Shown here: positions 7,971 to 36,425 of the stretch, in pieces
Layout: the number at the start of each line of letters is the position of its first letter
Position numbering within the stretch: the stretch's first letter is position 1
DNA from: Verrucomicrobiota bacterium
GTDB taxonomy: Bacteria; Verrucomicrobiota; Kiritimatiellia; Kiritimatiellales; Pontiellaceae
Reading direction: 5' to 3'
Assembly (NCBI GenBank): GCA_024279685.1
Contig: JAJRRI010000035.1
Span: forward strand, 3,081-67,080
DNA length: 64,000 bases
Notes under the pieces: model-generated
Database searches by the model: none
The model's input: the letters and a program-made list of their open reading frames with translations, nothing else
What the model was told of the DNA's origin: nothing
Program-made: the position numbers and the translations under genes

Positions 7971-7975
7971 ACCGA

Positions 7976-9760: not shown

Positions 9761-10117
9761 TATCGTCTGAAAATAACTAAGGAGGGCGTTTTGCGCACGC
9801 TCCTTTTTAAGAGCTCGAATTGGCTATATAAATCACAGTCGTTTATTGATTTCAGCATTAAAATGCCTAAATCGAACGGTATTTATCATCTAACCCATAA
9901 AAGAGGATTTTCGAGACGCTGAAGAACCACGAAACTTTGCGTCAGATCAAAGAGTGTGACGAGCCTCGGAAGTTATAATTTAACAGGGATTTAGCGGAAT
10001 AAATTCACGTTTCCGAGAAATTGTGAATGCCCTTTTAATGGAAATATGCGAAGAGTGGGAGTCGGTCGATAAAGCCTGCTTAAAAATGAAGGCTAACTAC
10101 ATAGAAAGGGGATAAAA

Positions 10118-10671: not shown

Positions 10672-11898
10672 TTAAAGGCGCTTAAAAATCAATGAGGTGT
10701 TGATCCCGCCGAAGGCGAAGTTGTTGCTCATGATGTATTTGCAATCGATCTGTCGGCCGTCCCCCACGATATAATCGAGATCCCCGCAACGCTCATCGAT
10801 GGTCTTCAGGTTTAGTGTCGGATGGAACCACCCTTCGTTCATCATCTCTAGGCTCAGCCAGGCCTCGATAGCGCCGCAGGCTCCAAGGGTGTGGCCGAAA
10901 TAACTCTTTAACGAACTGATCGGTGTCTTCTTGCCGAAGAGGTTGGCTGTGGCATGGCTCTCTGCAATATCGCCTTTATCGGTGGCGGTGCCATGGGCTG
11001 AAACATAACCGATCATAGACGGATTGACCTGCGCATCATTCAGTGCCATTTCCATACAGCGTTGCATGCTTGCGCTATCTGGCTGGGTCACGTGCGCCGC
11101 ATCGCAGGTGGTTGCATAGCCGATCAGTTCGGCGTAAATTTGAGCTCCGCGAGCTTTAGCATGTTCATATTCTTCGAGCACCAATGTTCCGGCTCCCTCG
11201 CCAATCACTAGGCCATCGCGATCGGCATCGTATGGGCGCGGCGTAGTTTTTGGTGCCTCATTCCGCAGGCTGGTGGCATAGAGCACATCAAATGCCGCGG
11301 ATTCGGTGGGACAGAGTTCCTCTGCGCCTCCGGCGACCATGGCGGTTTGATATCCATGTTTGATGGCTTCATAGGCATATCCGATGGCCTGACTGCCGGA
11401 GGTGCATGCGCTACTGGTCGGAATTACGCGGCCCCGCAAGCCGAAGAAAATGGCTACGTTGACCGCCGTAGTATGCGGCATCATTTGAACATAGCTGTTG
11501 GCATGAATCGCCCGAGTATTCTTTTCATTCAACATGAGGCCAAAAGCGCCGGTGGCGTCCGTGCTGCCGGTGGAGGAGCCGTATGCAACTCCCGTTTGGC
11601 CATTGGTGAGGACGTCGAGCTCCAGCAAGCCGCTTTGCCGTAGGGCATTTTCCGAGGCCACCGTCGCTAGTTTGGATACCCGCCCCATGGAGCGGATCTT
11701 TTTTCGAGTGTAATGAGCGGGGAGGTCAAAATCGTTGATGGGTGCCGCTAGCTGAGTGTTCAATCCCTTATATTGCGCGTACTCGGGCATCCGTTGCACC
11801 GCGTTTTCACACGCCTTCAGGTTGGGTGCGACGGTTCCCCAATGGTTCCCGAAAGCGGTGACTCCGGACATTCCTGTAACGACCACTCGACGACTCAT
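10672..11898 (-). CDS. apeR: Beta-ketoacyl-ACP synthase (APE cluster, ApeR-type)
   Basis: RRVVVTGMSGVTAFG, catalytic SSACTSG, SAHGTAT, KSYFGHTLGA, SNNFAFGG. Last gene of the APE gene order. Confidence 0.9.
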   Translation of the reverse strand: MSRRVVVTGMSGVTAFGNHWGTVAPNLKACENAVQRMPEYAQYKGLNTQLAAPINDFDLPAHYTRKKIRSMGRVSKLATVASENALRQSGLLELDVLTNGQTGVAYGSSTGSTDATGAFGLMLNEKNTRAIHANSYVQMMPHTTAVNVAIFFGLRGRVIPTSSACTSGSQAIGYAYEAIKHGYQTAMVAGGAEELCPTESAAFDVLYATSLRNEAPKTTPRPYDADRDGLVIGEGAGTLVLEEYEHAKARGAQIYAELIGYATTCDAAHVTQPDSASMQRCMEMALNDAQVNPSMIGYVSAHGTATDKGDIAESHATANLFGKKTPISSLKSYFGHTLGACGAIEAWLSLEMMNEGWFHPTLNLKTIDERCGDLDYIVGDGRQIDCKYIMSNNFAFGGINTSLIFKRL

Positions 11899-12620
11899 AC
11901 CATACCTCCATTTACAGAAATGACCTGGCGGGTGATGTAGGACGCCGCATCAGACATTAGAAAGCGGGCTAGTCCCGCGACTTCTTCCGCCGTGCCCATT
12001 CGCCGGAGCGGAATCAGGGTCAAAGCTTGTTTTAAAACCTCTTCGTTCACGAGGCCTGTATCAATCAATCCTGGGGCGATGCAATTGACGGTAATTTTCC
12101 GTTTCGCCAACTCAAGGGCCAGCGATTTGGTCGCGCCGATGATCCCCGCCTTAGAAGCACTATAATTGGTTTGGCCCCGGTTTCCCGTGATCCCTGAAAC
12201 GGAGGAGAGCGTCACAATGCGCCCGCCTTTCCGCAATTGAACCATCGGCAGCACACACGGATGGAGTACATTATAAAATCCATCGAGGTTGGTGTGTAAA
12301 ACATGATCCCACTCCTGCTCCGTCATAGCAGGGAACGCATTATCGCGGACCACGCCCGCATTGGTCACGACGCCGTAATAGGCGCCGTGCGATTCGATAT
12401 CGGCCTCCAGTTGGGTGCGGCATTCCTCGCGTGCGCCGATATCGAAACAGATCGATCGGGCGGCCCCTCCGTGTTGGGTAATCTCCTGCATAGTTTGCTG
12501 CGCTCCGGCTTCATCGCTCCGGTAATGCACGACCACGGTAAACCCATCTTCCGCGAGTTGGAGGGCGATCGCTCGGCCTATTCCTTTACTCGCCCCGGTA
12601 ACTAATACGTGTCTTTCCAT
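11895..12620 (-). CDS. apeQ: 3-ketoacyl-ACP reductase (ApeQ, FabG-like)
   Basis: TGASKGIG, NAG, YSASK catalytic motif. Start moved to ATG 12620. Stop overlaps the apeR start. Confidence 0.9.
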   Translation of the reverse strand: MERHVLVTGASKGIGRAIALQLAEDGFTVVVHYRSDEAGAQQTMQEITQHGGAARSICFDIGAREECRTQLEADIESHGAYYGVVTNAGVVRDNAFPAMTEQEWDHVLHTNLDGFYNVLHPCVLPMVQLRKGGRIVTLSSVSGITGNRGQTNYSASKAGIIGATKSLALELAKRKITVNCIAPGLIDTGLVNEEVLKQALTLIPLRRMGTAEEVAGLARFLMSDAASYITRQVISVNGGMV

Positions 12621-12661
12621 GATCGTGCTCCCTTCCATTTTATCCGTTGATCTCATGTCGC

Positions 12662-13108
12662 CTAGGTTTCCGCTGGCGGCTCATATACATTCAATTCGCA
12701 CGTCGCTTGCAAGATTCCTTTATGGTGAATCGTGCAGGAAAAAGCCGCCATATTATCACTCTTCAAAATTTGTTTTGCATGGATATCCAAGACCATCCCT
12801 TCGGGAAAATGGGGCTGTTCGCTCCTATAACTTCGTCCCCCCAATAGGAATCCAATGGCGGGAGTTTCGTTCCGTTTCCAAGCGTGGTAGCCCGCCCAAA
12901 TCGCGACGGTCTGCGCCATGAATTCCATCCCGATATAGCCCGGAACCGCCCGCGTCTGCGCATTAAAAAAAATGCCCGACGCATGAATAATGACTCGGCA
13001 ATGTACCTTATCTTCTTCGGCATGTACCAGTTCATCAATAAGGATCATGGGTGCATCATGCGCGATGAGTTGGGCTATATTCGGCAGATCATTCATGAAC
13101 CCCTCCAA
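12662..13108 (-). CDS. apeP: Hotdog-fold dehydratase partner (ApeP)
   Basis: IAHDAPMILID, GMEFMAQTVA, IGFLLGGR. Located between KS and FabG. Confidence 0.85.
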   Translation of the reverse strand: MEGFMNDLPNIAQLIAHDAPMILIDELVHAEEDKVHCRVIIHASGIFFNAQTRAVPGYIGMEFMAQTVAIWAGYHAWKRNETPAIGFLLGGRSYRSEQPHFPEGMVLDIHAKQILKSDNMAAFSCTIHHKGILQATCELNVYEPPAET

Positions 13109-14306
13109 AAATTAGACTCACGTTATTCCCCCCAAAAGCGAAGGAATTGCTCAGCACCGCCCGTTTTTTCAGCCGCATGCCGGGTCTCGCCCATTGGACC
13201 GGCGGGAATTCAGCGGGGTATTCCCCGTCATTCACTTGCGCCGGAATTTCTAAATTATAGTGCAACAGGTGCCAGCAGATTGCCGCTTCAACGGCGCTGG
13301 CCGCACCGAGCGTGTGCCCGGTAAGCGGTTTGGTTGAGCTTACTGGAACCCGATCCCCAAACAGCCGGAAGATCGCTTTGGCTTCCATTTCATCGTTCAG
13401 TACGGTGGCGGTTCCATGGGCGTTAATATAACCAATGTCTTTCGGGCCGAGCGCCGCATCGGCCAGCGCCCGCCGCATCGACTCCTCGGCTCCGTTTCCT
13501 TCTGGGTGCGGCGCCGAAATATGGTGCGCATCCGAACTATCCCCAAACCCGAGCAGGGAAATATTTTTTGAATCGGGGTCGGCCTCGCGGGAGAGGACAA
13601 AAAAGGCCGCGCCTTCACCAATATTAATTCCGTTCCTATTTTTACTGAAGGGATTGCAGAGCGATTCGGATAGCGATTCCAAGGTATGAAATCCATTGAG
13701 CGTAAGCCGACAGAGCGAATCTGCCCCTCCTACAATGACGGCATCTGCCATGCCCGATCGGAGAAGCCGGGCTCCCGAAATAAAAGCGCGCCCGCTCGAT
13801 GAGCACGCGGTCGAAAGGGTATAGCTCGCCCCTTTGATGCCGAAGTAGGCCGCGATAAATTCGGAAAGGGTTCCAATTTCCTGCGTCTCATAGAGATAGT
13901 CGGCGGGGAACGCTCCCTTTTGGATCTGATGAAGCAAGGCTCGCTCGCCATCCGCAATACCGGACGTGCTCGTGCCCGCCACCACCGCCACGCGCTTGGC
14001 GCCATAGCGAGCCACGATCTGCTCCACCGAGGTTGAAATTTGTTGCAGCGCCGAGAGGGCTAGTCGATTGTTACCCGAGTGAATCAATCCCGTTGGGATT
14101 TCGGGTAAAGTGGACGCCACCTTTCCCACTCGAGTTTTCTGATCCGCATTCAGGAAATCATTTCCCCGTATCATGTCCGGCGAGCTCCCCTTCAACAGCC
14201 GTTCATGAATCTGTTCATGCCTTAAACCCAGCGCTGAATTAAATCCACAAGCGTGGATATAAACCGGGGGTGGTTTGTCGTTATTTGGGATGGATTTCGA
14301 GGGCAC
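13089..14306 (-). CDS. apeO: Beta-ketoacyl-ACP synthase (ApeO-type)
   Basis: GTSTSGI, STACSSS, NIGEGAA, SDAHHISAP, NAHGTAT, KPLTGHTLGA, SNSFAFGGNN. Confidence 0.9.
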   Translation of the reverse strand: MPSKSIPNNDKPPPVYIHACGFNSALGLRHEQIHERLLKGSSPDMIRGNDFLNADQKTRVGKVASTLPEIPTGLIHSGNNRLALSALQQISTSVEQIVARYGAKRVAVVAGTSTSGIADGERALLHQIQKGAFPADYLYETQEIGTLSEFIAAYFGIKGASYTLSTACSSSGRAFISGARLLRSGMADAVIVGGADSLCRLTLNGFHTLESLSESLCNPFSKNRNGINIGEGAAFFVLSREADPDSKNISLLGFGDSSDAHHISAPHPEGNGAEESMRRALADAALGPKDIGYINAHGTATVLNDEMEAKAIFRLFGDRVPVSSTKPLTGHTLGAASAVEAAICWHLLHYNLEIPAQVNDGEYPAEFPPVQWARPGMRLKKRAVLSNSFAFGGNNVSLIFGGVHE

Positions 14307-14309
14307 GTT

Positions 14310-14906
14310 TTACCGACTATAGTTGAGTGTTTTAATGGTTATTTTTAACCCTAAGAGATGATTCATAAACACAATGGTTCCGTCAAGGTCGGGTTCTTTT
14401 TCGTAGACTATCGTGGCCATCACCTGTTGGTTTTGATCCATCAACTGGCGTTGCTTCGACGTTCCTTCCAATCGCCAGCCGATCGCTTGTAAGGGTTCCT
14501 CCCAAGCTTCTAACGGCCAAAGCGTGATCATTAGGTTAAAGAGAATCTGTTCAGGATCAGGTAATTTTTTACCTAAGCCCGACATAACCGAAGTTGAAAT
14601 CGTCCCTTCTTCATAGGTCAGGCTCATAATACGTGACCCCCACGATGAAAACCCGGCCAGTACCAACCGTTCAGGATCCACTTGAAGTTGCACTGGCAAC
14701 TGGTGTTGCTCGCCTTGATAATCCACCGAGACCAACTGACTGGCGGAGAGGCAATAGCCCAGCGACTTCGGCAGCGGCATTTCGATGAAAAGGTTCGGAG
14801 CAATTTCCACCGTATTTTCGCGGAGTTGCGGGCGGCTGAGACATCCCCCCAAAAGGCATGCCGTACTCATCAACAGCCCGATCTTAAACCAAGAAAAACG
14901 CGTCAT
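14310..14906 (-). CDS. apeN: DUF3261 lipoprotein (ApeN)
   Basis: Lipobox LLGG-C from ATG 14906 (ATGA overlap with the MMPL stop). SASQLV, LVLAGFSSWG, LFNLMITLWP. Confidence 0.8.
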   Translation of the reverse strand: MTRFSWFKIGLLMSTACLLGGCLSRPQLRENTVEIAPNLFIEMPLPKSLGYCLSASQLVSVDYQGEQHQLPVQLQVDPERLVLAGFSSWGSRIMSLTYEEGTISTSVMSGLGKKLPDPEQILFNLMITLWPLEAWEEPLQAIGWRLEGTSKQRQLMDQNQQVMATIVYEKEPDLDGTIVFMNHLLGLKITIKTLNYSR

Positions 14907-17224
14907 GATCTCTTCTCCAGCGTCATGGCCAGCGGGGCTAGCAACCAGGATATAAAAATACCGACCAATACCGTCATTCCGAAACAATGAATCGCCGCCG
15001 TCTCACTTAACGCCAAGAGACCAAACGATAAAAGGGTGGTGGCGGCCGACAACGAAATAGACAGTTGGGTGCTGAGCAGGGCTTGGCCGGAACGCTCCCG
15101 CAGTTCGCCAAAGAAAAGCGTATAATCAATGCCGATCCCCAACACAATGGCCAAGGCCAGCAGGTTGAACAGATTCATCGGCGCGCCCGAAAGACCCGCG
15201 ATTGAAATACTAAACAGCCCAGCAAGGATGGGCGGGAGGACCATACGAGTGCCTTTTGCTACCCCATATCGGAGGGCTAAAAGAATCCAAATTGACAGCG
15301 TGGCCAAGAGGAGTAAATAGGTGATTCGAACTCGGTACACCGAAAAAAGAGCTGAAATTTCGGACGCCTTATCCAAAAAGTGAAGGTCTGGGTTTTGCGC
15401 CGCTAGTGCGTTCAAGGGCGCGGCGTTTTTTACCCCGTTTAGTAGAATCACCGAACCTACTTTTTCGGTGTCATCCAATTTTCCTAGCCATAGAAACCGA
15501 AGCGGTTCGGCGGCCGGGGATGCTAAGAAACTAGCGAGGGTTAGCGGCGAGAAATCGGTCGCCATGCTGGGGGTCTCGGAAAGGCCCAAGGTCTGCTTAA
15601 GTTGATGCCCTTGTTTTAGGTAGAGGCTTTGAACTAGCTCGAAATTATCGCGCTGAATACGCTCGGAAGGCGCATAGGGTTCTAGACTATGGAACCCGCC
15701 CAAAATCTCATTTTGAATCAACTCATTTAAGCGTAGGCCGGTCTCGTGAAGTCGTTCGAGCACCGCTTGCTCATCGTCACCGGTCACCAGTAACATGTGC
15801 TGACCATTCTGTATTCCCATCACCTGCTGCACCACTTTTTCTTGGGCTTTTAGGTCGGGAGAAAGGGCCTGTAGCTGGCGGATATCATCATTGAACTCGG
15901 CACGAAAGAGACCCGGAATAGCGAGTCCCAGCACCAGGAGCGGAAGTGCGATTCGGACCGAACGGTTGCTCCAAAATACGATCCAGCCGTTCATCGGAGC
16001 GGCCCATGGCAGGCCCGAATTCGTGCCCGGTTTGGCCGCCAGAACCGGATACCAACAGACCACTGTGGCGTAGGCTCCGGCCAGCCCGACGGTGGAAAAA
16101 ACAGCCAGTTGCTGTAGGCCTGGGAAGGGAGCCGCGAGTAATCCTGCATAGCCCATTACACTCGTAATTAACCCCATCGTGATGGCTGAAAAAATGGCCT
16201 TGAGGCCCGTTCCTGAATGCCAGCTCGAACCGGCCGCGAGGCGGTGCGTTAAATAGTGAAAGGCATAGTCGATGGAAATACCAATTAGGCTGGCTCCAAA
16301 AACCAAGCTGAACAGATGCACGCGTCCGAAGATCCAAACCGTGACCACAAATGCCGCCAGCAGTCCGCAACCGATCGATAATAACGAGAGACCAATCGGC
16401 AACAGGCTCCGGTAGACGATGATGAGCAGCACGAGCACTCCGATCAATGAACCGATGCCAATGGTACTGATTTCGCGCTGGGCACTTTTAATTCCCTCCG
16501 CCGCATAACAGAGCACGCCCGTATGATATAGCTCCACCGCATATCTTTCACGGATCTGTTGTTCGAGTTCCAGCAGGGCGGGCAGTTGATTGGCTCCGCG
16601 TGCGCCATAGGCGGAATCGGCCGCCTCGGCCGTAATTAGGAGGTAGCTTTTTTCCTCGTCGCTTTTGCCGGGAAATCCATCGATGAGGGTGAAAGCGCCG
16701 GATTGTGAAGTCAGGCCGGAGAGGAATTCACGAAATAAAAGAAAGGGATTGTTCTGCAACTCGCGTCCCGTCACTCCAGAGAAGGGGCTGTAGAGTTGCA
16801 TCTGAACTCGCTCCACCTGTGCTTCCGGCGTATGCCGGAGACGTTCGCGTTGCTCTGGGGTGAGCAGTTGAAATCGTTTGGGATAGTAGAGATCGCTCCA
16901 GGATTTCTGTTGGTTAGAATCGATCCGTCCGGACACGGAAGAAAAGAGCTCCATTTGTTTAAGCCCGCCCACTAGATCTTCAGCCGCCCGCACAGCCTGA
17001 TCCTTATCCTCGGCTTCAATGACAAAGAGCACTTTGCGTTCTAGCCCGCCGAGCACGCGATCCATCGCCGCCTGCGCAACAGGGTTCTGCCGGTCTCTAG
17101 GCAGAAGCGCCATGATGTCGGTCTCGATCAGCGTTCCACGACTCGATCCCAACCCCTGCCAGAGTAAGCTTCCGCCGAGAACCAGAATGACAACCAGCCA
17201 GCTATATGCTCTTTTAAAATTCAA
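14903..17224 (-). CDS. apeM: MMPL/RND-type exporter (ApeM)
   Basis: ETDIMALLP, two transmembrane bundles with GISIDYAFH and LGIGIDYTLF, NDDIRQLQ. Confidence 0.9.
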   Translation of the reverse strand: MNFKRAYSWLVVILVLGGSLLWQGLGSSRGTLIETDIMALLPRDRQNPVAQAAMDRVLGGLERKVLFVIEAEDKDQAVRAAEDLVGGLKQMELFSSVSGRIDSNQQKSWSDLYYPKRFQLLTPEQRERLRHTPEAQVERVQMQLYSPFSGVTGRELQNNPFLLFREFLSGLTSQSGAFTLIDGFPGKSDEEKSYLLITAEAADSAYGARGANQLPALLELEQQIRERYAVELYHTGVLCYAAEGIKSAQREISTIGIGSLIGVLVLLIIVYRSLLPIGLSLLSIGCGLLAAFVVTVWIFGRVHLFSLVFGASLIGISIDYAFHYLTHRLAAGSSWHSGTGLKAIFSAITMGLITSVMGYAGLLAAPFPGLQQLAVFSTVGLAGAYATVVCWYPVLAAKPGTNSGLPWAAPMNGWIVFWSNRSVRIALPLLVLGLAIPGLFRAEFNDDIRQLQALSPDLKAQEKVVQQVMGIQNGQHMLLVTGDDEQAVLERLHETGLRLNELIQNEILGGFHSLEPYAPSERIQRDNFELVQSLYLKQGHQLKQTLGLSETPSMATDFSPLTLASFLASPAAEPLRFLWLGKLDDTEKVGSVILLNGVKNAAPLNALAAQNPDLHFLDKASEISALFSVYRVRITYLLLLATLSIWILLALRYGVAKGTRMVLPPILAGLFSISIAGLSGAPMNLFNLLALAIVLGIGIDYTLFFGELRERSGQALLSTQLSISLSAATTLLSFGLLALSETAAIHCFGMTVLVGIFISWLLAPLAMTLEKRS

Positions 17225-17849
17225 ATGAACTCCGCTCTGCTTCAGTTAATGAGGCCGGATGGTTGCTCTGATGACTGAATTGGATGACGGAAATATCCCC
17301 GCTCGTCTCCTCAAGACGGATCGTGTCGATGTATTCACGACCCTGGAGTCGGATCGTTTTAAAGGCGGTTTTCAGGGGCCCTTGCTCCGGAGTCAGCTTC
17401 AACGTCCAGTATTTTTCCTCCTTCACTGGCGGGAAAAATTCCACGTTAAACTGTTCGGCTAGCCCCTCTGTCTCCCCACGAAAAATGGAAAGAAAAAGCC
17501 CGCTGAAATAAAACATCATTGGGTTTTCATCGGCCTGCATCACCTGCGCGGGCTGCTCGCCAAATTGTTGGCTCAACTGATCCTTCCCCAGAATGAGTGT
17601 AACGGAAAATGGGTGAGTCTGTAGCCATTGGAGTCCATGGGGCTCGGATAAAAGAAAGCGTCCCTCTGAGACCAGAGGTTGGTCAAATAGCTCCAACGTC
17701 CGGGTCTGTTTGAATGATCCACGGATCACCGTGTGGGCGGACAAAGTCCGCTGGAGTTCCACCAACGATTCGATCGGCTTTCCGCTCCCACTCATGGGGA
17801 ATGCGATCAGCATGGAGAACATAAATATCCAGCTTCTGCTACCGCGCAT
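17214..17849 (-). CDS. apeL: LolA-like lipid/lipoprotein carrier (ApeL)
   Basis: Signal peptide, GSFKQTR, PLVSEGRF, GLQWLQTHPF, WTLKLTP, ETSGD. Confidence 0.85.
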   Translation of the reverse strand: MRGSRSWIFMFSMLIAFPMSGSGKPIESLVELQRTLSAHTVIRGSFKQTRTLELFDQPLVSEGRFLLSEPHGLQWLQTHPFSVTLILGKDQLSQQFGEQPAQVMQADENPMMFYFSGLFLSIFRGETEGLAEQFNVEFFPPVKEEKYWTLKLTPEQGPLKTAFKTIRLQGREYIDTIRLEETSGDISVIQFSHQSNHPASLTEAERSSFEF

Positions 17850-18267
17850 GCCAGGCCTCCACTCGGTTCAGGAAGACTTTGGGCGACACATAACACATCT
17901 CTTCCGTCTCCATATCCACCGCTACCTGCAGGGTGTATCCGCGGGTGAGTCGCTCGCCCGTTTTTGCATCGTAGACGACATACTTTACCTTCAGGCGATT
18001 TTCCCATTCGGCGAGCTCGGCCGTCACTCGGATCTCGTGGTTGAAGGAGACCGGGCGGATATATTTAACGCGCACATCGATAATCGGCCAGACATAGCCC
18101 GACGCGCGCATGGCTAGATAGCTATATTCAATCTTTTCCAATAAAGCGTGACGAGCGGCCTCGAAAAATCGGAAATAATTTCCATGATAGATTACCCCCA
18201 TTGGGTCGGCATCTTGAAAAGAGGTCGTCAGCACCACTTCGGCTTGCAGGCGTTTTTCTGAGTTCAT
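17839..18267 (-). CDS. apeK: Acyl-CoA/ACP thioesterase, 4HBT-like (ApeK)
   Basis: FQDADPMGVIYHGNYFRFFE motif. ATG 18267 overlaps the ammonia-lyase stop (ATGA). Confidence 0.88.
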   Translation of the reverse strand: MNSEKRLQAEVVLTTSFQDADPMGVIYHGNYFRFFEAARHALLEKIEYSYLAMRASGYVWPIIDVRVKYIRPVSFNHEIRVTAELAEWENRLKVKYVVYDAKTGERLTRGYTLQVAVDMETEEMCYVSPKVFLNRVEAWHAR

Positions 18268-19811: not shown

Positions 19812-21492
19812 TTTTATCCCCATCGTCCAGCTCCCAGAAATTGAAAAAATTATACCACTGCAACGGAGCTTTCAGCGCATAATAATTAAGACGTTCGGCA
19901 TAGGCCTGAACGATTTCGGCCAGCGCTTCCATGCGCCGGCTCCGGTCGAGTGTCATTGATTCTCGGAACGGTTCCACATAGAGCTCAAAGTGCGGTTTGT
20001 ATTTTGTTCCGCCGCGCAGCCCGAAACATAGAAAGGTCGGCACATTCAATACCGAAGCGAGAATGAAGGCCCCTTGCGGAAAGGGCGCTGGACGACCCAG
20101 GAAGTCGGCATACACGACGCGCTTCTCTTTCGAGACCGAGGTGCGATCGCCCATGATGACCACCATCTCACCTTGGTCGAGCTTCTCCTTCAAGTTCATC
20201 GCCACCTCGGGCCGCATATCCTTTACCTGAATCAGGTTCAGGCCGGAAGCCGGATTAACCGCTCTCATGACGGCATTGAACCGCGCCGCATTTTCGGTAA
20301 AAATTAACGCATTAATTTTTAGCTCTGGACACTGGATGCTTAACGCTCGAAACAGCTCAAGATTTCCCAGATGGGCGCCTAGTACGACCACGCCCTGTTT
20401 TTTTTCGAGGTAAGGGGCATACGTATCTAATCCGTGGAGGGTCACATTTTCCATCGTCCAATCCCCGCGCCAGCCTGCAATCTTATCCAGCATGGAGCGG
20501 CCAAACGAAAGAAAGTGCCGGAAGGGAGTCAAGTTTTGCGGCAAGGGTTTTTGGTGCGCCGCCGCATATGTTTTGAGCTGATTTAGGTATTCGTTGGAGG
20601 CGGATCGGGCCTGCTTGCGGGTGGCGTGATAGTACACCATGACCAGACTCATTAAGGCTTCGAACACGCGTATTCCGAAGATGGAGTAGGCGGCTAATAA
20701 GGTCTTCATGCCCAGAACACTTCCTTTTTCCGTGTACGCTGACCAGTGGATATTTCGCTGAAAATTACGAATTAGGAGCTTGGGGATACGGGGCAACATG
20801 CCAAAAAATAGGCGCGTGTGCATGAGGCTAATTCGGACGTTATCGCGCCGCACGTCAAAATGAGAAATACCGTTTTCGGGATAGATGACGCCCACGTCAA
20901 GAAAGCGGACTCCACACCCCGCCCAGTATATATGCACCATAATTTCCGTATCAAAATCCATGCGTTGGCCGGGCGCCTTCCGCTCTATCGTCGCCAGGGT
21001 TTCAGGTAGGGGATACGCTCGGAAGCCGCACATGCTGTCGGTAATGTGCAACGAGAGCGTTTCAATCCAAACCCAGATATGAGTGATGTATCGACCATAG
21101 TGCCGCGCTTTCGGGATAGACTCATCGTAGCGCGGCTTGCCTGAAATTAAGTCCGTGGGATATTTCTGGGATAGCCGGAGTAATTCGGGAAGTGCCTCCA
21201 GATCGTGCTGGCCGTCGGCATCCACCTGAATACCATGGCTAAACCCACGTTCGGCGGCGCGGCGGAAACCGGCCATGACGGCGGCTCCCTTGCCGTTGTT
21301 TTTCGGAAGCGTGAGAATTTCAATCCCATCCCGATGACGCTCCTCGGACAAGAGGCGGGCGGTTTCTGGGCCACTGCCATCATCAATAATCAGCACGGGA
21401 AGCCCCACCGATTCCAGCGCATCCAGCAGAGCGGGGATCGTTTCCCCATGGTCATAGCAGGGAATCAAAATCACTGGGCGGTACGCATTCAT
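19804..21492 (-). CDS. apeJ: Glycosyltransferase family 2 fused to LpxL-like acyltransferase (ApeJ)
   Basis: GT2 motifs IPCYDH, DDGS, KGAAV, QVDADGQH, DSMCGFR. C-terminal AHLGNLE and MGDR acyltransferase motifs. Confidence 0.9.
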   Translation of the reverse strand: MNAYRPVILIPCYDHGETIPALLDALESVGLPVLIIDDGSGPETARLLSEERHRDGIEILTLPKNNGKGAAVMAGFRRAAERGFSHGIQVDADGQHDLEALPELLRLSQKYPTDLISGKPRYDESIPKARHYGRYITHIWVWIETLSLHITDSMCGFRAYPLPETLATIERKAPGQRMDFDTEIMVHIYWAGCGVRFLDVGVIYPENGISHFDVRRDNVRISLMHTRLFFGMLPRIPKLLIRNFQRNIHWSAYTEKGSVLGMKTLLAAYSIFGIRVFEALMSLVMVYYHATRKQARSASNEYLNQLKTYAAAHQKPLPQNLTPFRHFLSFGRSMLDKIAGWRGDWTMENVTLHGLDTYAPYLEKKQGVVVLGAHLGNLELFRALSIQCPELKINALIFTENAARFNAVMRAVNPASGLNLIQVKDMRPEVAMNLKEKLDQGEMVVIMGDRTSVSKEKRVVYADFLGRPAPFPQGAFILASVLNVPTFLCFGLRGGTKYKPHFELYVEPFRESMTLDRSRRMEALAEIVQAYAERLNYYALKAPLQWYNFFNFWELDDGDKNE

Positions 21493-23246
21493 TCTGGGGG
21501 CGCCAAAAGAATCCGGCCGGAGGAATGTTTTCCCGCCTCGGAGCAGTAGGCAAATTTTAACTTTTGCTTTTCAGCGTCCCACTGGAGCGTTAACTCAACG
21601 AGATTGCCGGGGGTGATCGGCTTGAAAAATTTAATCACTTCCATCCCTTTAAAAATCGGCGGTGTGTCTAGAAACTCTCGTCCATACTCCACCGCCCAAT
21701 CGATCTGGGTGACGCCGGGCAAAAGTTGAAACTGGGTAAAATGGCCCTCGAAGTAAGTGATATCGGCATCGATTCGCAGGGTTAATCGAATTTGACTTTC
21801 ATCCGCCTCCTGAGCAAGAAGGGTGGGTTTAAGTTTTAGGGGGTTCTTTTCGTTCGTTGAAGTTGAAGGCGGTTGATCGAGGAAGAGACGTTTGAGTTCA
21901 GCCAGGCTATGCTTGCCTTGTGGATTGAGCGGAATGTGATCCACCACCCGATACCGACGTGGAATTCCAACCGGATCCACACTTCGGCGCAGTTCCGTTC
22001 GCAATAAAATCCAGAACCGCCCGCGCCCTAGCTCTTTAATTTTTTGGTGGCCCGCTTCGCTCAGCACGATTATCGCGCATACGGCTTGGCGGTTACTTTG
22101 TTCCAAGGAAACAGCGACGGCCTCCGAAATCCATTTTAACGCTTGAACATGATGCTCGACCTCCGTGAGGGAGATTCGTTTTTCCTCAATCTTTACAATC
22201 CGGTCGGAGCGCCCCTCCAAAAGGAACGTTCGTTCCGAAAGTGGACGGCAACGGTCGGCGGTTTCCATCCACTCATCTCCCGGAATAAATGGGGATCGCA
22301 GGCAAAGGTTTCCTGCGGTATTGCACTTCATTTTAATCGGCGGAAATAGGGACCAGGGTATCTGGGCGGTGGTGGCTCGGCGAAAGGCAATGCCGCCGGT
22401 TTCTGTACTGCCGAACACTTCAATCGGGGTGGTTTTCAGTAAATTCTCACCCTGTTGTGATACTGAAAATGGAAGAGCTCCGCCCGAAGAAAAAACCGCC
22501 CGAAATGGGGTGGGGGATCCGGTGGGGTCTAATCTTTTCAGCAGTGCGGGACTGCTGATGAGCGTACTATTTTCGCCCCCATGATCCATCACTTGCTCCG
22601 GGTGTTCTCGAATCCGGCGCTCGAACGGGCGGGAGGCACAGAGCGGCCAGAGGATGCGAAAGAGTAAGCCGTAGATATGCTGGTGAGAAACGGTTCCTGC
22701 CAAGCACGTACCGGCTAGCACATCCCCCCAGAGGGTTTCCAGAACCTGGATCTCTGCGTCGAGCAACGCCAAAGGTTTTTGAATAGGCGTCGGGGTTCCG
22801 GTGGAACCGGAGGTATATAAAGTAAGGATGATCTGGTTGAGATCTAAGGCTTGGAAAGGAAGAGGTATGGGCGGATGTTCCTTCTTCAATGGAAGCGAGA
22901 TGTGGGCTTCTGTGATGGAGTGCACAAACTCGGCCGATAACGGGCCGTCCTCTAGGAGGCCCTCGAACCCGCCCGAAATTTCTTTCAACGCATTGGGCTG
23001 AAGGTTGCCCGGCAAAATCAGTTCGCAATTTGCGTGAGCTGTGGCTAAAAATGCGACTGCAAAATGATAACTATCCCGTAGGCAAAGGGCCCATCGCTGG
23101 CAGGGGCTTTCGCGGAGTACGGCGGCGAGTACCGCAACGTCTTTTCTAAATTGGACTACACCGACGTCGCCAAAAAGTCCGGACACCACGAGTTGATCGT
23201 CCGACCGCCGCATCATCAATTCCGAGAGTGAATGGAGACCGGTCAT
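21489..23246 (-). CDS. apeH: Acyl-ACP/CoA synthetase (ApeH) fused to C-terminal FabA/Z-like dehydratase (ApeI)
   Basis: YTSGSTGTP, HQHIYGL, EVFGSTETGG, GRSDRIVKIEEKR. The last ~114 aa contain YFEGHF..LPGVTQIDW and EVIKFFKPI. Confidence 0.88.
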   Translation of the reverse strand: MTGLHSLSELMMRRSDDQLVVSGLFGDVGVVQFRKDVAVLAAVLRESPCQRWALCLRDSYHFAVAFLATAHANCELILPGNLQPNALKEISGGFEGLLEDGPLSAEFVHSITEAHISLPLKKEHPPIPLPFQALDLNQIILTLYTSGSTGTPTPIQKPLALLDAEIQVLETLWGDVLAGTCLAGTVSHQHIYGLLFRILWPLCASRPFERRIREHPEQVMDHGGENSTLISSPALLKRLDPTGSPTPFRAVFSSGGALPFSVSQQGENLLKTTPIEVFGSTETGGIAFRRATTAQIPWSLFPPIKMKCNTAGNLCLRSPFIPGDEWMETADRCRPLSERTFLLEGRSDRIVKIEEKRISLTEVEHHVQALKWISEAVAVSLEQSNRQAVCAIIVLSEAGHQKIKELGRGRFWILLRTELRRSVDPVGIPRRYRVVDHIPLNPQGKHSLAELKRLFLDQPPSTSTNEKNPLKLKPTLLAQEADESQIRLTLRIDADITYFEGHFTQFQLLPGVTQIDWAVEYGREFLDTPPIFKGMEVIKFFKPITPGNLVELTLQWDAEKQKLKFAYCSEAGKHSSGRILLAPPE

Positions 23247-23248
23247 CT

Positions 23249-23830
23249 TTAATTCGGCAACGGGGGTTTAGGTTCAAATTTTTGCTGAATGCGCTGGCGG
23301 ATGAGGAATTCAACGAGGAACAGATTCCCCATCAGTAGATAACTAATCAATCCATTATATAGGGTCCATACTTCCAACGATTGAAAGCAGGTGATGAGCG
23401 CGATGCTTCCGTTGAGGATGAAAAATAGACACCAGATTTGGGTGACGGTGCGCGTGTAGCGAACTCCACTTTCCGGCAGGTCGGGGTTTTTGAGGCGGGC
23501 AAAACGCTCAATCATCGATTGCTGCTGAAAAAGACTACTGCCAAATAGCGTGAGCATCAGGAGATTGACGACAACGGGATAATATAAAAACCAGCCGGTT
23601 TGCTTGAAGAGGAGACTGAATAGAACCAAGATTAAACCGGCTCCGGCGCTACTCATTGCAATCGGTTTAAGTCCTTTGATTTGTATGGCGCGGCCGCCGG
23701 CGAGGCGTAGGATAAACAAAATCGTGAGCAGACCTGCAACACCCCTGATTCCCCAGCGGCTCAATCCAAAATAAACCATCACCGGATAGGCGAGTAAGGC
23801 CAGCGTGGATAGAAGCATCAGCCCGCGCAT
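23249..23830 (-). CDS. apeG: Integral membrane protein COG4648-like (ApeG)
   Basis: AYPVMVYFGL, YYPVVVN, SMIERFAR, YTRTVTQIW, WTLYNGLISY. Confidence 0.85.
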   Translation of the reverse strand: MRGLMLLSTLALLAYPVMVYFGLSRWGIRGVAGLLTILFILRLAGGRAIQIKGLKPIAMSSAGAGLILVLFSLLFKQTGWFLYYPVVVNLLMLTLFGSSLFQQQSMIERFARLKNPDLPESGVRYTRTVTQIWCLFFILNGSIALITCFQSLEVWTLYNGLISYLLMGNLFLVEFLIRQRIQQKFEPKPPLPN

Positions 23831-24078
23831 TATTCAGCTTTTAAGAGGTTTGCCACCGCATCAACGACATCATTCACGGTCCGGATTTGCTTAAACTCTT
23901 CCGGCTGAATTTTTCGGTGCGTCAGGGTTTGAAGTTTAACGACCAGATCCACCGCATCAATGCTGTCCATATCAAGTTCATCAAATAGCCCCGTTTCTGG
24001 CTGGACCTGATTGGCATCCAACTCGGTCAGTTCCATAAGAACCTCTTGCACTTGGCTAAAAATTTCGTCCCGATTCAT
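23830..24078 (-). CDS. apeF: Acyl carrier protein (ApeF)
   Basis: LDMDSIDAVDL phosphopantetheine site, acidic 82-aa protein. Confidence 0.92.
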   Translation of the reverse strand: MNRDEIFSQVQEVLMELTELDANQVQPETGLFDELDMDSIDAVDLVVKLQTLTHRKIQPEEFKQIRTVNDVVDAVANLLKAE

Positions 24079-24113
24079 TCGTATTCCCCTTGAAAAATTC
24101 CTTTTAAACCGAG

Positions 24114-24374
24114 CTATTCAGCCTGATGGCTCGCGATATAGGCCGCCAGATTAGCTACCGATTCAAAGTGCTCTCGAATCTTCGGATCATCGGAGTCAAT
24201 GATGATATTGTACTGCTTCTTGATGGCCAGTCCCAGCTCTAGTGCATCGATCGAGTCCAGCCCCAACCCTTCGCCGAAGAGCGGCTCGGATGCGACAATA
24301 TCATCGGCCGTGATATCCTCTAGATTCAACGAATTTATAATTAGTTCTTTTACTTCAGTGTGTAATGCATCCAC
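24114..24374 (-). CDS. apeE: Acyl carrier protein (ApeE)
   Basis: PLFGEGLGLDSIDALELG. Confidence 0.92.
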   Translation of the reverse strand: MDALHTEVKELIINSLNLEDITADDIVASEPLFGEGLGLDSIDALELGLAIKKQYNIIIDSDDPKIREHFESVANLAAYIASHQAE

Positions 24375-24380
24375 AAGATT

Positions 24381-25172
24381 TCACCTTTCTGTTTCGTTTG
24401 TTTTTTCTTCTTCTGGAAAGAGCACTTCGGCTAAATGCAGGTTTAGATGGCGGGCGGCGGCATTGACTGAGCTCGCATTGGAGAGAAAGGGTTCGACCTC
24501 GATCAGCTCCTTTACCTCCACTCTAAAAACCGGTTTGACGTCCGGCATGTTGTACCATTTATGCTCTTTGGTTAAAAAACTGGGGTTCACCGTAACATGA
24601 ACCAGACGCAGGGCGACCTTTGAATGCGTTGTAATCTGTGCCGCACCACGCATCAAGGTCGACGGTTTTCCGGGCGTGGTTCGCGTTCCTTCGGGGAAAA
24701 TCAGGAGGACACGACCTTGGTGTAACCGCGTCACGCACTCGTCCACGAATTGGGAAGCATCTGCGTTGGAAATGTAGCCTGCCGTCTTGACGAGCCCCTT
24801 CATGCAGGGATTTTTAAAAATCGCCGGTTTCACGATGCAGTCGCACTGCGGCAGACTGGATGCAATCATCACATAGTCGATCAGGCTGGGATGGTTGGCC
24901 ACGATCAGGCATCCGCGGTCGCTCCTAAGGGTGTCCATCCCAACCCGCTCAATGTCAGCCACACCGATCCTTTGGATCATCCATAGGAATAAATTAAAGG
25001 TTCGTTGAATAAGGGCCTGCGCGCGGCGTTGTTTGACCCATGGATCGCGCTCAAAAATTCCGAGAATTGGAAAGCACACAAAGGAGAGAAACACGCCTCC
25101 GATCCCGAAGCAGGCAAAACTGATCCCTGTACCGAAAATCCGCCTATATCGTCTAAGTCGACTTAGGATCAT
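24381..25172 (-). CDS. apeD: Lysophospholipid acyltransferase, PlsC-like (ApeD)
   Basis: NHPSLID and FPEGTRT motifs, RGAAQI. Confidence 0.9.
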   Translation of the reverse strand: MILSRLRRYRRIFGTGISFACFGIGGVFLSFVCFPILGIFERDPWVKQRRAQALIQRTFNLFLWMIQRIGVADIERVGMDTLRSDRGCLIVANHPSLIDYVMIASSLPQCDCIVKPAIFKNPCMKGLVKTAGYISNADASQFVDECVTRLHQGRVLLIFPEGTRTTPGKPSTLMRGAAQITTHSKVALRLVHVTVNPSFLTKEHKWYNMPDVKPVFRVEVKELIEVEPFLSNASSVNAAARHLNLHLAEVLFPEEEKTNETER

Positions 25173-25175
25173 AGG

Positions 25176-25880
25176 TTACGCCAAGTTCAGGGTCATGTTG
25201 GCCCTGGGGCACCCTTGTTCGTCGGTCTCATGAAGAAGCTGGACGATAAGATCTAATGCCGCAGAAGACGTTTCTTTTTCGAAATTCAGAATCACCTCTA
25301 CCTGATCGCCCCCCGTTAACAGCAACCCGAGTGCATAGCCTGGGTGTGACGTTTTTATCAGCGTGTTATACGGCTCAGGCAGCGGTTCATCAAAGTCGAC
25401 CAGTAAGATGCGGTGGCCGGGATGCAGTGCCAGATAGACTCCCGCTTCGGTCAATGCCGCCGCAAGCGACTTCGATCCGGCTCCGATCGAAGTCACCGGA
25501 ACCGGCTTTTGGCTGATAATCGTATAATGACTGGCGGCGGTATTATGCACCGATTGGGAAAACATCGTGGGCGATGCATCTTCCCCGATTAGGATCTCTT
25601 TCAGCAGGGCGGTCGTTCGGGTGAGCTCGCCGTGTCGGCTGGAAAAAATGATGTAATCCAGCTCTTCACCTTGGGTGAGCATCAGCGCATTCTGCACCGC
25701 AAGTTTACTTAGGGAGCTCATGCGGCGGCGTACCATCGCCGGGATTCGATCGGTCAGCAGTTGGCCCTCAACTCCATCCCACGAACATCCATTCTCTGCC
25801 CAACCCTGCCAGGCGAACCGTTCAGAAAGTCCGGCGGAAAGCGCCTGCCACTTGATTAAATTGAAACTTACATTGCTCAT
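25176..25880 (-). CDS. apeC: Ketosynthase chain-length factor (ApeC)
   Basis: RRRMSSLSK, FSSRHGE, SPTMFSQSVHN, with no catalytic Cys. First gene of the minus-strand operon. Confidence 0.88.
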   Translation of the reverse strand: MSNVSFNLIKWQALSAGLSERFAWQGWAENGCSWDGVEGQLLTDRIPAMVRRRMSSLSKLAVQNALMLTQGEELDYIIFSSRHGELTRTTALLKEILIGEDASPTMFSQSVHNTAASHYTIISQKPVPVTSIGAGSKSLAAALTEAGVYLALHPGHRILLVDFDEPLPEPYNTLIKTSHPGYALGLLLTGGDQVEVILNFEKETSSAALDLIVQLLHETDEQGCPRANMTLNLA

Positions 25881-25993
25881 TTAAATAGATTATATAATTC
25901 AACCGTCCTATGATCTATCGCTAAACGAGAATAGTTTGGGGCAGGAAAAAAGTAGGCCAACGGCGGCCTACCACCCTTTTCAGGAATCAGGAT

Positions 25994-27061
25994 ATGACAT
26001 CGTACGAGAAAGAACCTTTTAATGCGTTTCAGGCTAAGGAAGAAGCCCAGAAGCTCGCCTTTGCTCCTATCCTTTTTCACTGCGCGAGAACCCTACGGGA
26101 TTTAGGAATCCTCGCGGCGCTCGACCGCGCTGGAGATCCTGGACTGGATGCGACAACACTGGCCAAAGAAACCGGAGTCAGCGAATATGGCGTGAAGGTC
26201 TTGTTGGATATGGCACTCAGTGGAAGCATCGTAACCTGGGTCGCCCCACGCTATAAACTAGCCAATCTCGGCCACTTTCTCGAACATGATGGCATGACTC
26301 GAGCCAATATGGATTTCTCGGCTGACGTCTGTTATGCCGCCATGATGCATCTCACCGAAGCCATCCAAACCGGAACACCCGCCGGACTGAAAGAGCTGGG
26401 CGACTGGGCAACCATCTACGAAGGACTCACACAGTTGCCGCAGAAAGCGAAAGAGAGTTGGTTCAATTTTGACCACTTCTATTCCGATCGTTCCTTTCCG
26501 ATTCTTCTCGAACGCATCTTTACAGAAAAACCGGCGAAAATTTATGACATTGGCGGAAATACGGGGAAATGGGCCATGCAGTGCTGCGAGTATGATCCCG
26601 ATGTGGAAGTCACCATCATTGATCTTCCACCGCAAATTAATATGGCCATGGAAAATGCAAAAGAGACCGGGCTTGAAGATCGGATTAAGGGATATCCGGC
26701 CAATATGCTCGTTCCCAAGCAACTCCTCCCCGACGAGGCCGACATTTGGTGGATGAGCCAGTTTCTTGATTGTTTTTCACCGATGGAGATTCTGGCGATT
26801 TTAAAAAATGTGCGGGCGTCGATGAAACAGGGGGCTAGGGTATTCATTCTTGAACTCTTCTGGGATATTCAGCAGTACGATGCCGCTGCGCTCAGCCTGA
26901 ATGCCACCTCGCTCTACTTCACCTGTCTGGCCAATGGAAATAGCCGATTTTATCGATGCGACGATTTTCTGGAAATCGTTAAGGAGGCCGGCTTCCAGGT
27001 GACCGAGCAGACGAACGAGATCGGATTGGGACATACCTTATTGGAGCTGGCTACGAGGTGA
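25994..27061 (+). CDS. apeB: SAM-dependent O-methyltransferase (ApeB-like), divergent from the APE operon
   Basis: AQKLAFAP N-terminus, DIGGNTGKW SAM motif, WMSQFLDCFS, LYFTCLANGNS. Confidence 0.88.
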   Translation: MTSYEKEPFNAFQAKEEAQKLAFAPILFHCARTLRDLGILAALDRAGDPGLDATTLAKETGVSEYGVKVLLDMALSGSIVTWVAPRYKLANLGHFLEHDGMTRANMDFSADVCYAAMMHLTEAIQTGTPAGLKELGDWATIYEGLTQLPQKAKESWFNFDHFYSDRSFPILLERIFTEKPAKIYDIGGNTGKWAMQCCEYDPDVEVTIIDLPPQINMAMENAKETGLEDRIKGYPANMLVPKQLLPDEADIWWMSQFLDCFSPMEILAILKNVRASMKQGARVFILELFWDIQQYDAAALSLNATSLYFTCLANGNSRFYRCDDFLEIVKEAGFQVTEQTNEIGLGHTLLELATR

Positions 27062-27097: not shown

Positions 27098-27682
27098 ATG
27101 AAAACATCTATAGCCGCACTTTTACTCTTTATATCCTTACTCTCCGTCCTCCAAGCGGAGACCGACGACCCGCTTCCGGAACCCCACTTTGCTCTTATTA
27201 CGGGCGGAGGTTCATCCATCAAGGGGTTCGGCGAGACCGATCAAATTGTCTACACCGCCGATGTTATGTGGCGCTATGCTAAGCCGCTATTTTCAGTCGA
27301 TAAAAAGTGGATAAAGGGCACGCACCACATGTGGATTGAGACCCCCGTCTCCATACTCATTCATGATTCCGATTCGAACGATACATTCGATCTAGGAATC
27401 ATCGGCGTGAATTTCTTAGCCGTCTGGGTATTTCCAGAATGGAAAGGGATGAGCCCCTACCTGCTGGCCGGAGGCGGCCCGCGCTATATAATCGCCGATA
27501 TTGAGGGGATGGGATCCGATATGTCCGGCAACTACCAACTCGGCGCGGGCGCCTTTCTGTTCAACGAAAGCGATCACCCGTTGAGCCTTGAAATTCGCTA
27601 TGACCACATTTCAAATGGCGATCGGGCCGACCCCAACGTCCCTTTAAATTCAGTAAAAATCCTTCTCGGTATCCGCCTGTAA
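27098..27682 (+). CDS. Acyloxyacyl hydrolase / PagL-like outer-membrane beta-barrel deacylase
   Basis: Signal peptide, alternating beta-strand pattern, NYQLGAGA and the catalytic-type YDHISNG..PN..LNS motif near the C-terminus. Confidence 0.75.
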   Translation: MKTSIAALLLFISLLSVLQAETDDPLPEPHFALITGGGSSIKGFGETDQIVYTADVMWRYAKPLFSVDKKWIKGTHHMWIETPVSILIHDSDSNDTFDLGIIGVNFLAVWVFPEWKGMSPYLLAGGGPRYIIADIEGMGSDMSGNYQLGAGAFLFNESDHPLSLEIRYDHISNGDRADPNVPLNSVKILLGIRL

Positions 27683-27707
27683 CTTCAATTTTTTAGAAGT
27701 AAAAACC

Positions 27708-36319: not shown

Positions 36320-36425
36320 ATCGGCACGTTGTTCTGAGCTCGACGCGGAGAAGGACGGTGTAGATTTGGGATTGCTCGGCGTCGGAGGTGCTGATTTTAC
36401 GCATCGTGATGATGCCCTCTCCAAT

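Follow-up and report, generated by a model that had tools for sequence, protein, structure and literature searches.

The window analysed here, a stretch of 64,000 nucleotides (positions 3,081 to 67,080 of contig JAJRRI010000035.1, GenBank assembly GCA_024279685.1), carries genes of the aryl polyene (ape) family, which very probably form a complete and apparently functional aryl polyene lipid cluster of the Vibrionaceae subtype, resident in the chromosome of an uncultured Pontiella. This reading draws on the observed gene content and order, relatedness to known clusters, distribution, composition and selection, and the product, its starter and its physiological role are predicted from them. Aryl polyene clusters are described as the most widespread family of biosynthetic gene clusters (BGCs) of Gram-negative bacteria (PMC8253772).

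Sixteen co-linear genes on the minus strand (10672-25880) follow the order apeC-D-E-F-G-HI-J-lyase-K-L-M-N-O-P-Q-R, as read from the list of open reading frames (ORFs) and from Pfam scans, and the divergent apeB completes a set of 17 (names after Johnston et al. 2021, PMC8253772). In a scan that took one genome for each GTDB species, more than 587 stretches matched, of which the best 80 were compared: in these 80 species-representative genomes all 17 genes are co-linear, and no complete locus lacks any of them. The best 80 all belong to Vibrionaceae, Psychromonas or Shewanella, with Aliivibrio fischeri ES114 among them; the loci of Photobacterium leiognathi and Aliivibrio logei, for instance, consist of 17 genes in identical order, with the lyase between apeJ and apeK and the methyltransferase divergent. 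The initial annotation of the stretch had described a 16-gene minus-strand operon with the functions given below, and the same coordinates and domains were recovered from the ORF list and Pfam; the divergent O-methyltransferase that it named is a divergent methyltransferase at 25994-27061, the 'O-' coming only from the name of the Pfam family. The 17 genes are as follows.

25994-27061, plus strand: apeB, S-adenosylmethionine-dependent methyltransferase (Methyltransf_2 and dimerisation domain), divergent from the operon
25176-25880, minus strand: apeC, chain-length-factor (CLF) partner of the ApeO ketosynthase (Ketoacyl-synt_2/CLF, PF13723, E 9e-57)
24381-25172, minus strand: apeD, lysophospholipid-type acyltransferase (PF01553), predicted to attach the polyene to its lipid anchor
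24114-24374, minus strand: apeE, acyl carrier protein (ACP; PF00550, DSI serine motif)
23830-24078, minus strand: apeF, ACP (PF00550, DS serine motif)
23249-23830, minus strand: apeG, integral membrane protein of 193 amino acids, putative member of the export set, assigned by orthology (COG4648-like in E. coli)
21489-23246, minus strand: apeH-apeI fusion (585 amino acids), aryl-acid adenylating/ACP-loading enzyme with ApeI dehydratase (AMP-binding and ApeI-like domains)
19804-21492, minus strand: apeJ, fusion of a family 2 glycosyltransferase (GT2) and a lysophospholipid acyltransferase (LPLAT; Lip_A_acyltrans) by Pfam, predicted builder of the lipid anchor
18264-19823, minus strand: aromatic amino-acid ammonia-lyase, a 4-methylideneimidazole-5-one (MIO) enzyme (Lyase_aromatic, PF00221, E 1e-165), predicted supplier of the aryl starter
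17839-18267, minus strand: apeK, 4HBT-fold thioesterase (Pfam)
17214-17849, minus strand: apeL, LolA-like periplasmic carrier (PF03548)
14903-17224, minus strand: apeM, MMPL/RND-type inner-membrane exporter (PF03176)
14310-14987, minus strand: apeN, DUF3261, LolB-like outer-membrane acceptor (PF11659, E 2e-35)
13089-14306, minus strand: apeO, ketosynthase pairing with ApeC (PF00109 and PF02801; Cys in TACSSS, His in DAHH, His in AHGT)
12662-13108, minus strand: apeP, hot-dog dehydratase (PF22817, E 6e-27; the sole PF22817 match in the genome)
11895-12656, minus strand: apeQ, 3-ketoacyl-ACP reductase (families of short-chain dehydrogenases/reductases)
10672-11898, minus strand: apeR, second, FabF-like ketosynthase (PF00109 and PF02801; Cys-His-His triad intact)

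Gene content and relatedness

The biosynthetic core is present throughout, with the ketosynthase-CLF pair, ApeR, ApeQ, ApeI/ApeP, two ACPs and ApeH all found, and the seven genes for lipid attachment (ApeD, J, K) and export (ApeG, L, M, N) all stand in the expected order. The Cys-His-His triads of both ketosynthases and the serines of the ACPs are intact; the dehydratase profiles score above their own cut-offs (94.5 bits for PF22817, 60.9 bits for PF22818), and the AMP-binding domain of ApeH is found with E 3e-9. ApeG gave no Pfam match. The start positions of three of the listed ORFs, apeK, apeP and apeN, are probably too far upstream, as judged from the lengths of the orthologues (142 amino acids for ApeK and 192-205 for ApeN). 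Thus, apeK probably starts at 18267, with its second ATG, so that its start and the stop codon of the lyase gene overlap as ATGA, apeP likely starts at 13096, and apeN probably starts downstream of 14987. Three true ATGA start/stop overlaps (apeQ/R, apeHI/J and, through this second ATG, lyase/apeK) could be verified where several had been announced. The 113-bp intergenic region between apeB and apeC contains, 5′ of apeC on the operon strand (25951-25972), a GC-rich hairpin of 9 bp with a T run behind it, which may have arisen by chance or may resemble a leader or attenuator; a scan for sigma-70 promoters gave no enrichment over shuffled sequences.

Protein identities to four groups of clusters are given below (per cent).

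Metagenome contig L038: 71-88 overall; ApeR 87, ApeJ 81, ApeM 78
Vibrio-type clusters: 37-80 overall; ApeR 74-80, ApeJ 52-58, ApeM 43-54
E. coli CFT073: 27-67 overall; ApeR 67, ApeJ 46, ApeM 33
Verrucomicrobiota clusters: 22-60 overall; ApeR 50-57, ApeJ 31-47, ApeM 22-29

The closest named relatives of ApeJ are found in Photobacterium, Vibrio and Aliivibrio (56-59% over the full length), and four metagenome proteins reach 77-81%, relatives at this level being present in JGI samples 3300033151 and 3300072015. The lyase is 70-75% identical to the lyase in the same position of the 80 gammaproteobacterial clusters, and ApeB matches its likewise divergent Vibrionaceae counterparts at 67-76%, with 52% for that of E. 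coli. Corresponding values are 40-57% for ApeC and 42-54% for ApeH (35% in E. coli) against Vibrionaceae, 48-70% for the Vibrionaceae protein in the position of ApeG (51% in E. coli), and 47-55% for ApeD and 68-76% for ApeQ against the gammaproteobacterial orthologues. In no comparison is any protein of a gammaproteobacterial cluster closer than 80%.

By these measures the cluster is of the Vibrionaceae (APE_Vf) subtype, of the kind found in A. fischeri ES114. The apeB-R architecture of E. coli, Vibrio and Xenorhabdus, with which it had initially been equated, is therefore to be read as apeB-R of the Vibrionaceae subtype and not of that of E. coli and Xenorhabdus. With the APE_Vf clusters (ES114, Vibrionaceae, Psychromonas and Shewanella) it shares 17 genes in the same order and orientation and the RFHGCG motif of the lyase, but it lies in another phylum and has a GC content of 53% versus 40-44%. 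Furthermore, its apeH and apeI are fused, these being separate genes in Vibrionaceae; it lacks a gene for an ApeA-like lipoprotein (present in 55 of 82 gammaproteobacterial loci and missing from 27) and one for a Trp-halogenase-like flavoprotein (present in 61 of the 82, ES114 included), and it has a DUF4823 lipoprotein gene beside apeR and a PagL gene after apeB. The apeH-apeI fusion is shared with L038, while the two are separate, overlapping genes on the equally close contig P0004, as in all the gammaproteobacteria, E. coli included, so the fusion would be recent within the clade.

The APE_Ec clusters (apeA-R of E. coli CFT073, and that of Xenorhabdus doucetiae, reconstituted in vitro) share the apeC-R set and order, the predicted enzymology and the export genes (PMC8253772). 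They differ in that E. coli has no ammonia-lyase and obtains its starter, 4-hydroxybenzoate, from UbiC, which the genome studied here lacks, and in that apeB of E. coli is co-directional and apeA is present. The Kiritimatiellia/Verrucomicrobiota clusters (GCF-2 and GCF-3 of bioRxiv 10.64898/2026.10.06.756941; loci L024-L037) likewise contain two ketosynthases, a ketoreductase, a dehydratase and ACPs, some of them also LolA, MMPL, GT2 and thioesterase genes, but they form a separate clade with no lyase, a split apeJ and mostly no match to CLF or DUF3261.

Flexirubin (Bacteroidota) and xanthomonadin are also aryl-primed polyene pigments made by systems resembling type II polyketide or fatty acid synthases, with LolA/MMPL export, and flexirubin clusters use an ammonia-lyase to provide the starter. 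The cluster of the window differs from both in its gene order, which is that of gammaproteobacterial ape clusters, and in having neither a halogenase nor an ORF resembling DarA or DarB. Indeed, a flavin halogenase, noted as missing from the cluster at the first inspection, is found neither there nor anywhere in the 94%-complete metagenome-assembled genome (MAG), so that the halogenase expected of a xanthomonadin system is absent as well (XanB2 itself was not searched for). DAR genes had equally been reported as missing, and among all the ORFs at 9.9-27.7 kb none is left over for DarA or DarB, no dedicated profile search having been made.

Predicted pathway and product

Roles in the pathway were assigned from the orthologous genes of E. 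coli and Xenorhabdus (PMC8253772; bioRxiv 10.1101/2020.12.19.423268). The MIO ammonia-lyase would convert an aromatic amino acid, most likely tyrosine, into an aryl-acrylic starter acid, which the ApeH part of the ApeH-I fusion would adenylate and load onto ApeE/F. ApeO-ApeC and ApeR would extend the starter with malonyl units, and ApeQ together with ApeI/ApeP would carry out reduction and dehydration in each round, leading to a conjugated polyene. ApeB is predicted to methylate the aromatic head group, as its orthologues are thought to do (PMC8253772). Release of the polyene would fall to ApeK, ApeD and ApeJ, as would its attachment to an anchor of glycolipid type, and ApeG, ApeM, ApeL and ApeN would transport the lipid to the outer membrane, where a pigment of such kind would quench reactive oxygen species (ROS). 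A methylated, non-halogenated product, already considered probable in the initial annotation, is a fair prediction from the sequence, the methyltransferase being present and a halogenase absent from the MAG. As a member of the family, the product would be a yellow, aryl-capped conjugated polyene lipid with absorption at about 400-450 nm; that of A. fischeri has a 4-hydroxy-dimethylphenyl structure.

The lyase carries the Ala-Ser-Gly (ASG) motif of MIO enzymes, and its RFHGCG motif (window positions 19550-19575, residues 85-93) is invariant across all lyases of Vibrio-type clusters, that of ES114 included; therefore, the enzyme is expected to act like its A. fischeri counterpart, and its reaction should be whatever that enzyme catalyses. 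In the alignment, the selectivity-switch position is occupied by Phe-His, to be compared with His-Leu in the Rhodobacter tyrosine ammonia-lyase (TAL) and Ser-His in histidine ammonia-lyase (HAL). Phe-His stands where His-Leu is found in the characterized tyrosine ammonia-lyases, so tyrosine, the likely substrate, is put forward as a prediction. The MAG contains no UbiC, and the lyase of the cluster is its sole member of PF00221, which fits a lyase supplying the aryl starter.

Among the alternatives, the one that retains most weight, quite improbable as it is, is that the cluster makes a different product, with the lyase acting on phenylalanine or histidine, or with the loss of ApeA and of the flavoprotein changing the outcome, so that no 4-hydroxy-methylphenyl polyene of the A. 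fischeri type would be formed. The switch residues match neither TAL nor HAL and could be taken in this sense; nonetheless, RFHGCG is invariant in the Vibrio-type lyases, and the ES114 cluster, which belongs to this group, yields an aryl polyene when expressed heterologously (PMC8253772). Both ApeA and the flavoprotein, for which no match was found anywhere in the MAG, are absent, but the latter is also missing from 21 of the 82 gammaproteobacterial loci. The fusion of ApeH with ApeI and the possible co-transcription of the PagL gene with apeB would likewise suit a modified product, against which stand core enzymes that are all orthologous and under purifying selection.

Host, ancestry and age of the cluster

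The window is part of contig C38 (71.7 kb), the longest of a 2.69-Mb MAG in 178 contigs (93.9% complete, 2.4% estimated contamination). KorA, encoded 2.7 kb to the left of the cluster, is 78-81% identical to its homologues in Pontiella agarivorans, P. desulfatans and P. sulfatireligans and 92-96% identical to metagenome proteins; of the 52 further species placed in its GTDB genus, most align with the flanks at 7000-9912 and 36420-43220 (68-82% nucleotide identity), and the stretch at 28-36 kb has paralogues elsewhere in the MAG. Because of the identity of KorA and the matches of the flanks to congeneric genomes, the host is assigned, from its sequence, to an uncultured marine, sugar-fermenting Pontiella (Kiritimatiellales), that is, to Kiritimatiellota in the NCBI taxonomy and to the class Kiritimatiellia of Verrucomicrobiota in GTDB. 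The probable Kiritimatiellota host named at the outset thus agrees with flanking genes that are of Pontiella and not of proteobacterial type.

The possibility that a 17-kb cluster of a co-occurring gammaproteobacterium was wrongly joined to, or binned into, a Pontiella contig is suggested by the fragmentation and estimated contamination of the MAG, by short dispersed repeats near both junctions and by a synteny with relatives that breaks exactly at the left one. However, Pontiella DNA lies on both flanks of the same contig, and the junction repeats, which are specific to the MAG and its congeners, are only 77-88% identical between copies, seemingly too divergent for a mis-join. The cluster is genome-typical in GC content (52.8% versus 51.1% for the genome, with 40-44% in the Vibrionaceae and Psychromonas clusters and 57% in the Shewanella cluster) and in tetranucleotide usage: its 5-kb windows fall between the 9th and 61st percentile of distance to the genome mean, the whole cluster at the 64th percentile of 15-kb host windows, and the Vibrio, Psychromonas and Shewanella clusters lie about four times further from the host. 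With no known gammaproteobacterial cluster closer than 80% in any protein, and with a second copy (L038) that is 77% identical in nucleotide sequence, has the same host-like composition and carries a different gene beyond apeR, such an artefact is very unlikely.

Ratios of non-synonymous to synonymous substitution (dN/dS) between the window and L038 clusters are 0.05-0.15, with a saturated dS above 1. The host-like composition and the low dN/dS together indicate that the transfer is old and fully ameliorated, and that the cluster is kept under purifying selection; it has diversified within a small clade of host-like composition.

Its ancestry was followed in a four-gene tree (ApeO, P, Q and R; 60 rows) and in a 13-gene tree (3829 columns, LG+G4), with quick tree searches. 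In the former, the window and L038 fall in a clade with the Vibrio-type clusters, and 11 Verrucomicrobiota clusters stand apart with a value of 100 in the Shimodaira-Hasegawa-like approximate likelihood ratio test (SH-aLRT); once E. coli had been included and the C20 mixture model applied, the clade of the window lay inside a 99-supported Vibrionaceae/Psychromonas/Shewanella group with E. coli outside. In the 13-gene tree the window clade and the Vibrio-type clade are sister groups, and both E. coli and Verrucomicrobiota branch outside them, all at 100. Across the trees, SH-aLRT values are 99-100 for the exclusion of E. coli and 95-100 for that of Verrucomicrobiota, and the approximately unbiased (AU) test on 13 genes rejects a grouping of the window with Verrucomicrobiota (p 4e-7). 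The cluster is placed by these trees in the gammaproteobacterial radiation.

None of 24 congeneric genomes has an ApeP-like profile match above cut-off, nor has any of 16 further members of the order; in the phylum sample such a match is seen in 23 of 401 genomes (14 of 184 genera). The window genome is the only one with a full-length ApeJ, both within the order (89 species) and within a class sample of 401 genomes, in which the next best match is 47% over the GT half. At the DNA level, the region from about 9.9 to 27.2 kb is unmatched in the 52 congeneric genomes except for short, conserved pieces of ketosynthase genes. Accordingly, the horizontal acquisition proposed in the initial annotation is supported by distribution, synteny break and phylogeny. 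A segment of about 17 kb (about 9.9-27.1 kb, probably with the DUF4823 gene) would have been gained by a Pontiella sub-lineage from a marine gammaproteobacterium related to, yet outside, the sampled Vibrionaceae/Psychromonas/Shewanella group; the identity of the donor and, strictly, the direction of transfer are argued from parsimony, with hundreds of gammaproteobacterial species on one side and one Pontiella species on the other. Halomonas was considered as the donor, given a shared position of DUF4823, and rejected with its ApeR at 60% identity; a search of JGI metagenomes with ApeB for a closer donor gave no match above 76%, the best ones being all low-GC and Vibrio-like.

Vertical descent from an ancestral Verrucomicrobiota/Kiritimatiellia cluster lost almost everywhere else is scarcely credible, since the host-like composition, the ApeP-like clusters of those 23 genomes (same class included) and the frequency of aryl polyenes among the BGC classes of Kiritimatiellia (bioRxiv 10.64898/2026.10.06.756941) are outweighed by the separate clade and deviating gene sets of the Verrucomicrobiota clusters, the lack of any cluster in 88 other species of the order, the 13-gene AU test, a gene order identical to that of Vibrionaceae, and a window clade that stays with the gammaproteobacteria at present sampling.

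Several points weigh against the reading of the cluster as a complete pathway of the A. fischeri kind acquired from gammaproteobacteria. With the four core genes and a site-heterogeneous model, the AU test does not reject placement with Verrucomicrobiota (p 0.088). The window clade branches beside the sampled Vibrio-type clade instead of within it, and therefore the donor would be an unsampled relative. The junction genes have no independent assembly on record. The Phe-His switch of the lyase departs from that of characterized tyrosine ammonia-lyases. As the members of the lineage that have been cultured are strict fermentative anaerobes, the use of an antioxidant pigment there is not self-evident. 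Finally, tblastn with ApeA of E. coli and Photobacterium found no homologue in the cluster or the MAG, and ApeA is required for full lipid assembly in E. coli (PMC8253772).

Junctions and neighbouring genes

By sequence comparison, the non-native stretch starts at about 9.9 kb and closes with apeB, which ends at 27.06 kb. The features at its two ends are the following.

9912-10117: left junction; congeneric homology ends at about 9890-9912
10118-10624, plus strand: DUF4823 lipoprotein (PF16105, lipobox LTGC), convergent with apeR
27098-27682, plus strand: PagL-family lipid A 3-O-deacylase (PF09411), 36 bp downstream of apeB
27700-27965, minus strand: dispersed repeat with the decayed 3′ remnant of a frameshifted ISL3-family transposase gene (PF01610, E 7e-32, in the fuller copy on C110)

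In two close relatives (KorA 92-93%), sodB, tyrA and aroA lie directly upstream of the gltD-like gene of a gltD-like/korAB operon. In the window MAG this block is found on contig C49, and homology to the relatives ends at window position 9890; the site has therefore been rearranged, and is not a simple clean insertion. The positions concerned are 9760-9912 of the window and 1-1320 of C49. The start of C49 is the 3′ end of a duplicated beta-helix gene, 96% identical to a copy on C167, and this duplication probably broke the assembly there. A dispersed repeat of 59-77 bp occupies 10021-10098, past the point where synteny ends and ahead of the DUF4823 gene; it recurs on five further MAG contigs and elsewhere in Pontiella (77-86% identity between copies). 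The repeat at 27700-27965 is multi-copy in congeneric genomes (80-100%) and in the MAG; having no direct Pfam match, it was named through the fuller ISL3 copy on C110. The window contains no tRNA genes and so no tRNA integration site.

The DUF4823 gene has no DNA match in the 52 congeneric genomes, and its closest named relatives are in marine Proteobacteria (39-45%). A homologue stands just after apeR in Halomonas lysinitropha, and in two other genomes homologues are not adjacent to aryl polyene genes; the gene is a probable accessory of the acquired segment. On a metagenome contig (L211:946-11494), DUF4823 heads an aryl polyene-like lipid cluster that also encodes an amine-oxidase-like flavoprotein, together with a fusion of a radical-SAM/SPASM protein and an ApeP-like dehydratase.

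PagL, at 58% amino acid and 69-72% nucleotide identity to congeneric PagL, is of the native Pontiella type, and was absent from the flanks of all gammaproteobacterial clusters compared. It is possibly co-transcribed with apeB, which is suggestive in the light of proposals of glycolipid-anchored aryl polyenes; a functional link is putative.

What the cluster means for Pontiella and the aryl polyene family

In a 2026 preprint, aryl polyenes are reported to make up 14.2% of the BGC annotations of 898 Kiritimatiellia genomes and to be the second most abundant BGC class there, mainly in the gut genus UBA1067 (bioRxiv 10.64898/2026.10.06.756941). The clusters of that preprint have gene sets unlike that of the window, and 'aryl polyene' cluster counts in Kiritimatiellia would thus combine at least two unrelated origins. 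The initial statement that the lineage has no characterized aryl polyene holds as far as no product has been characterized, but clusters of other, unrelated subtypes have been reported, and ApeP-like matches occur across the phylum sample as given above. In the description of Pontiella species, aryl polyenes were speculated for the yellow strain F1 from its fab genes (PMC7356697); the genome corresponding to F1 contains only housekeeping fabG-fabF at the locus examined. A candidate native aryl polyene locus of P. desulfatans-like genomes, near the syntenic right flank, proved to be a housekeeping fabG-fabF region. Other Kiritimatiellales have a separate GT2 locus (G028:C42:37569-48895 and G431:C295:7988-10019), with an adjoining LPLAT gene in G431 and, in G028, a sub-threshold ApeP-like match in a 496-amino-acid ORF about 10 kb from the GT2 gene. 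Loci of this type may be what genome miners label 'arylpolyene' in Kiritimatiellales.

Knowledge of the pathway itself, which is already well known, is unchanged by the present cluster. It does offer a natural minimal variant for aryl polyene biology, with no ApeA, no halogenase-like flavoprotein and a fused ApeH-I, and its host, having no UbiC, fits the lyase as the starter-supplying step in the Vibrio-type subtype. As to its role, one reading is that a foreign antioxidant pathway, self-sufficient in its starter by means of its own lyase, has been retained under strong purifying selection by an anaerobe that is strictly fermentative and degrades polysaccharides. If this is true, aryl polyene lipids would be an oxygen or ROS shield for the Pontiella sub-lineage on oxic algal or particle surfaces. 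A separate reading is that the DUF4823 lipoprotein, given its homologues beside apeR in Halomonas and at the head of the cluster on L211, may be an unrecognized accessory of lipid systems of the aryl polyene type and take the place of ApeA. Taken together, the shield and the accessory role are rather doubtful. The transfer to which the cluster points is a well-documented case in which an entire pathway for an outer-membrane pigment, 17 kb long, passed from marine Gammaproteobacteria to the Planctomycetes-Verrucomicrobia-Chlamydiae (PVC) group, where its host-like composition, purifying selection and small carrier clade indicate that it was then domesticated.

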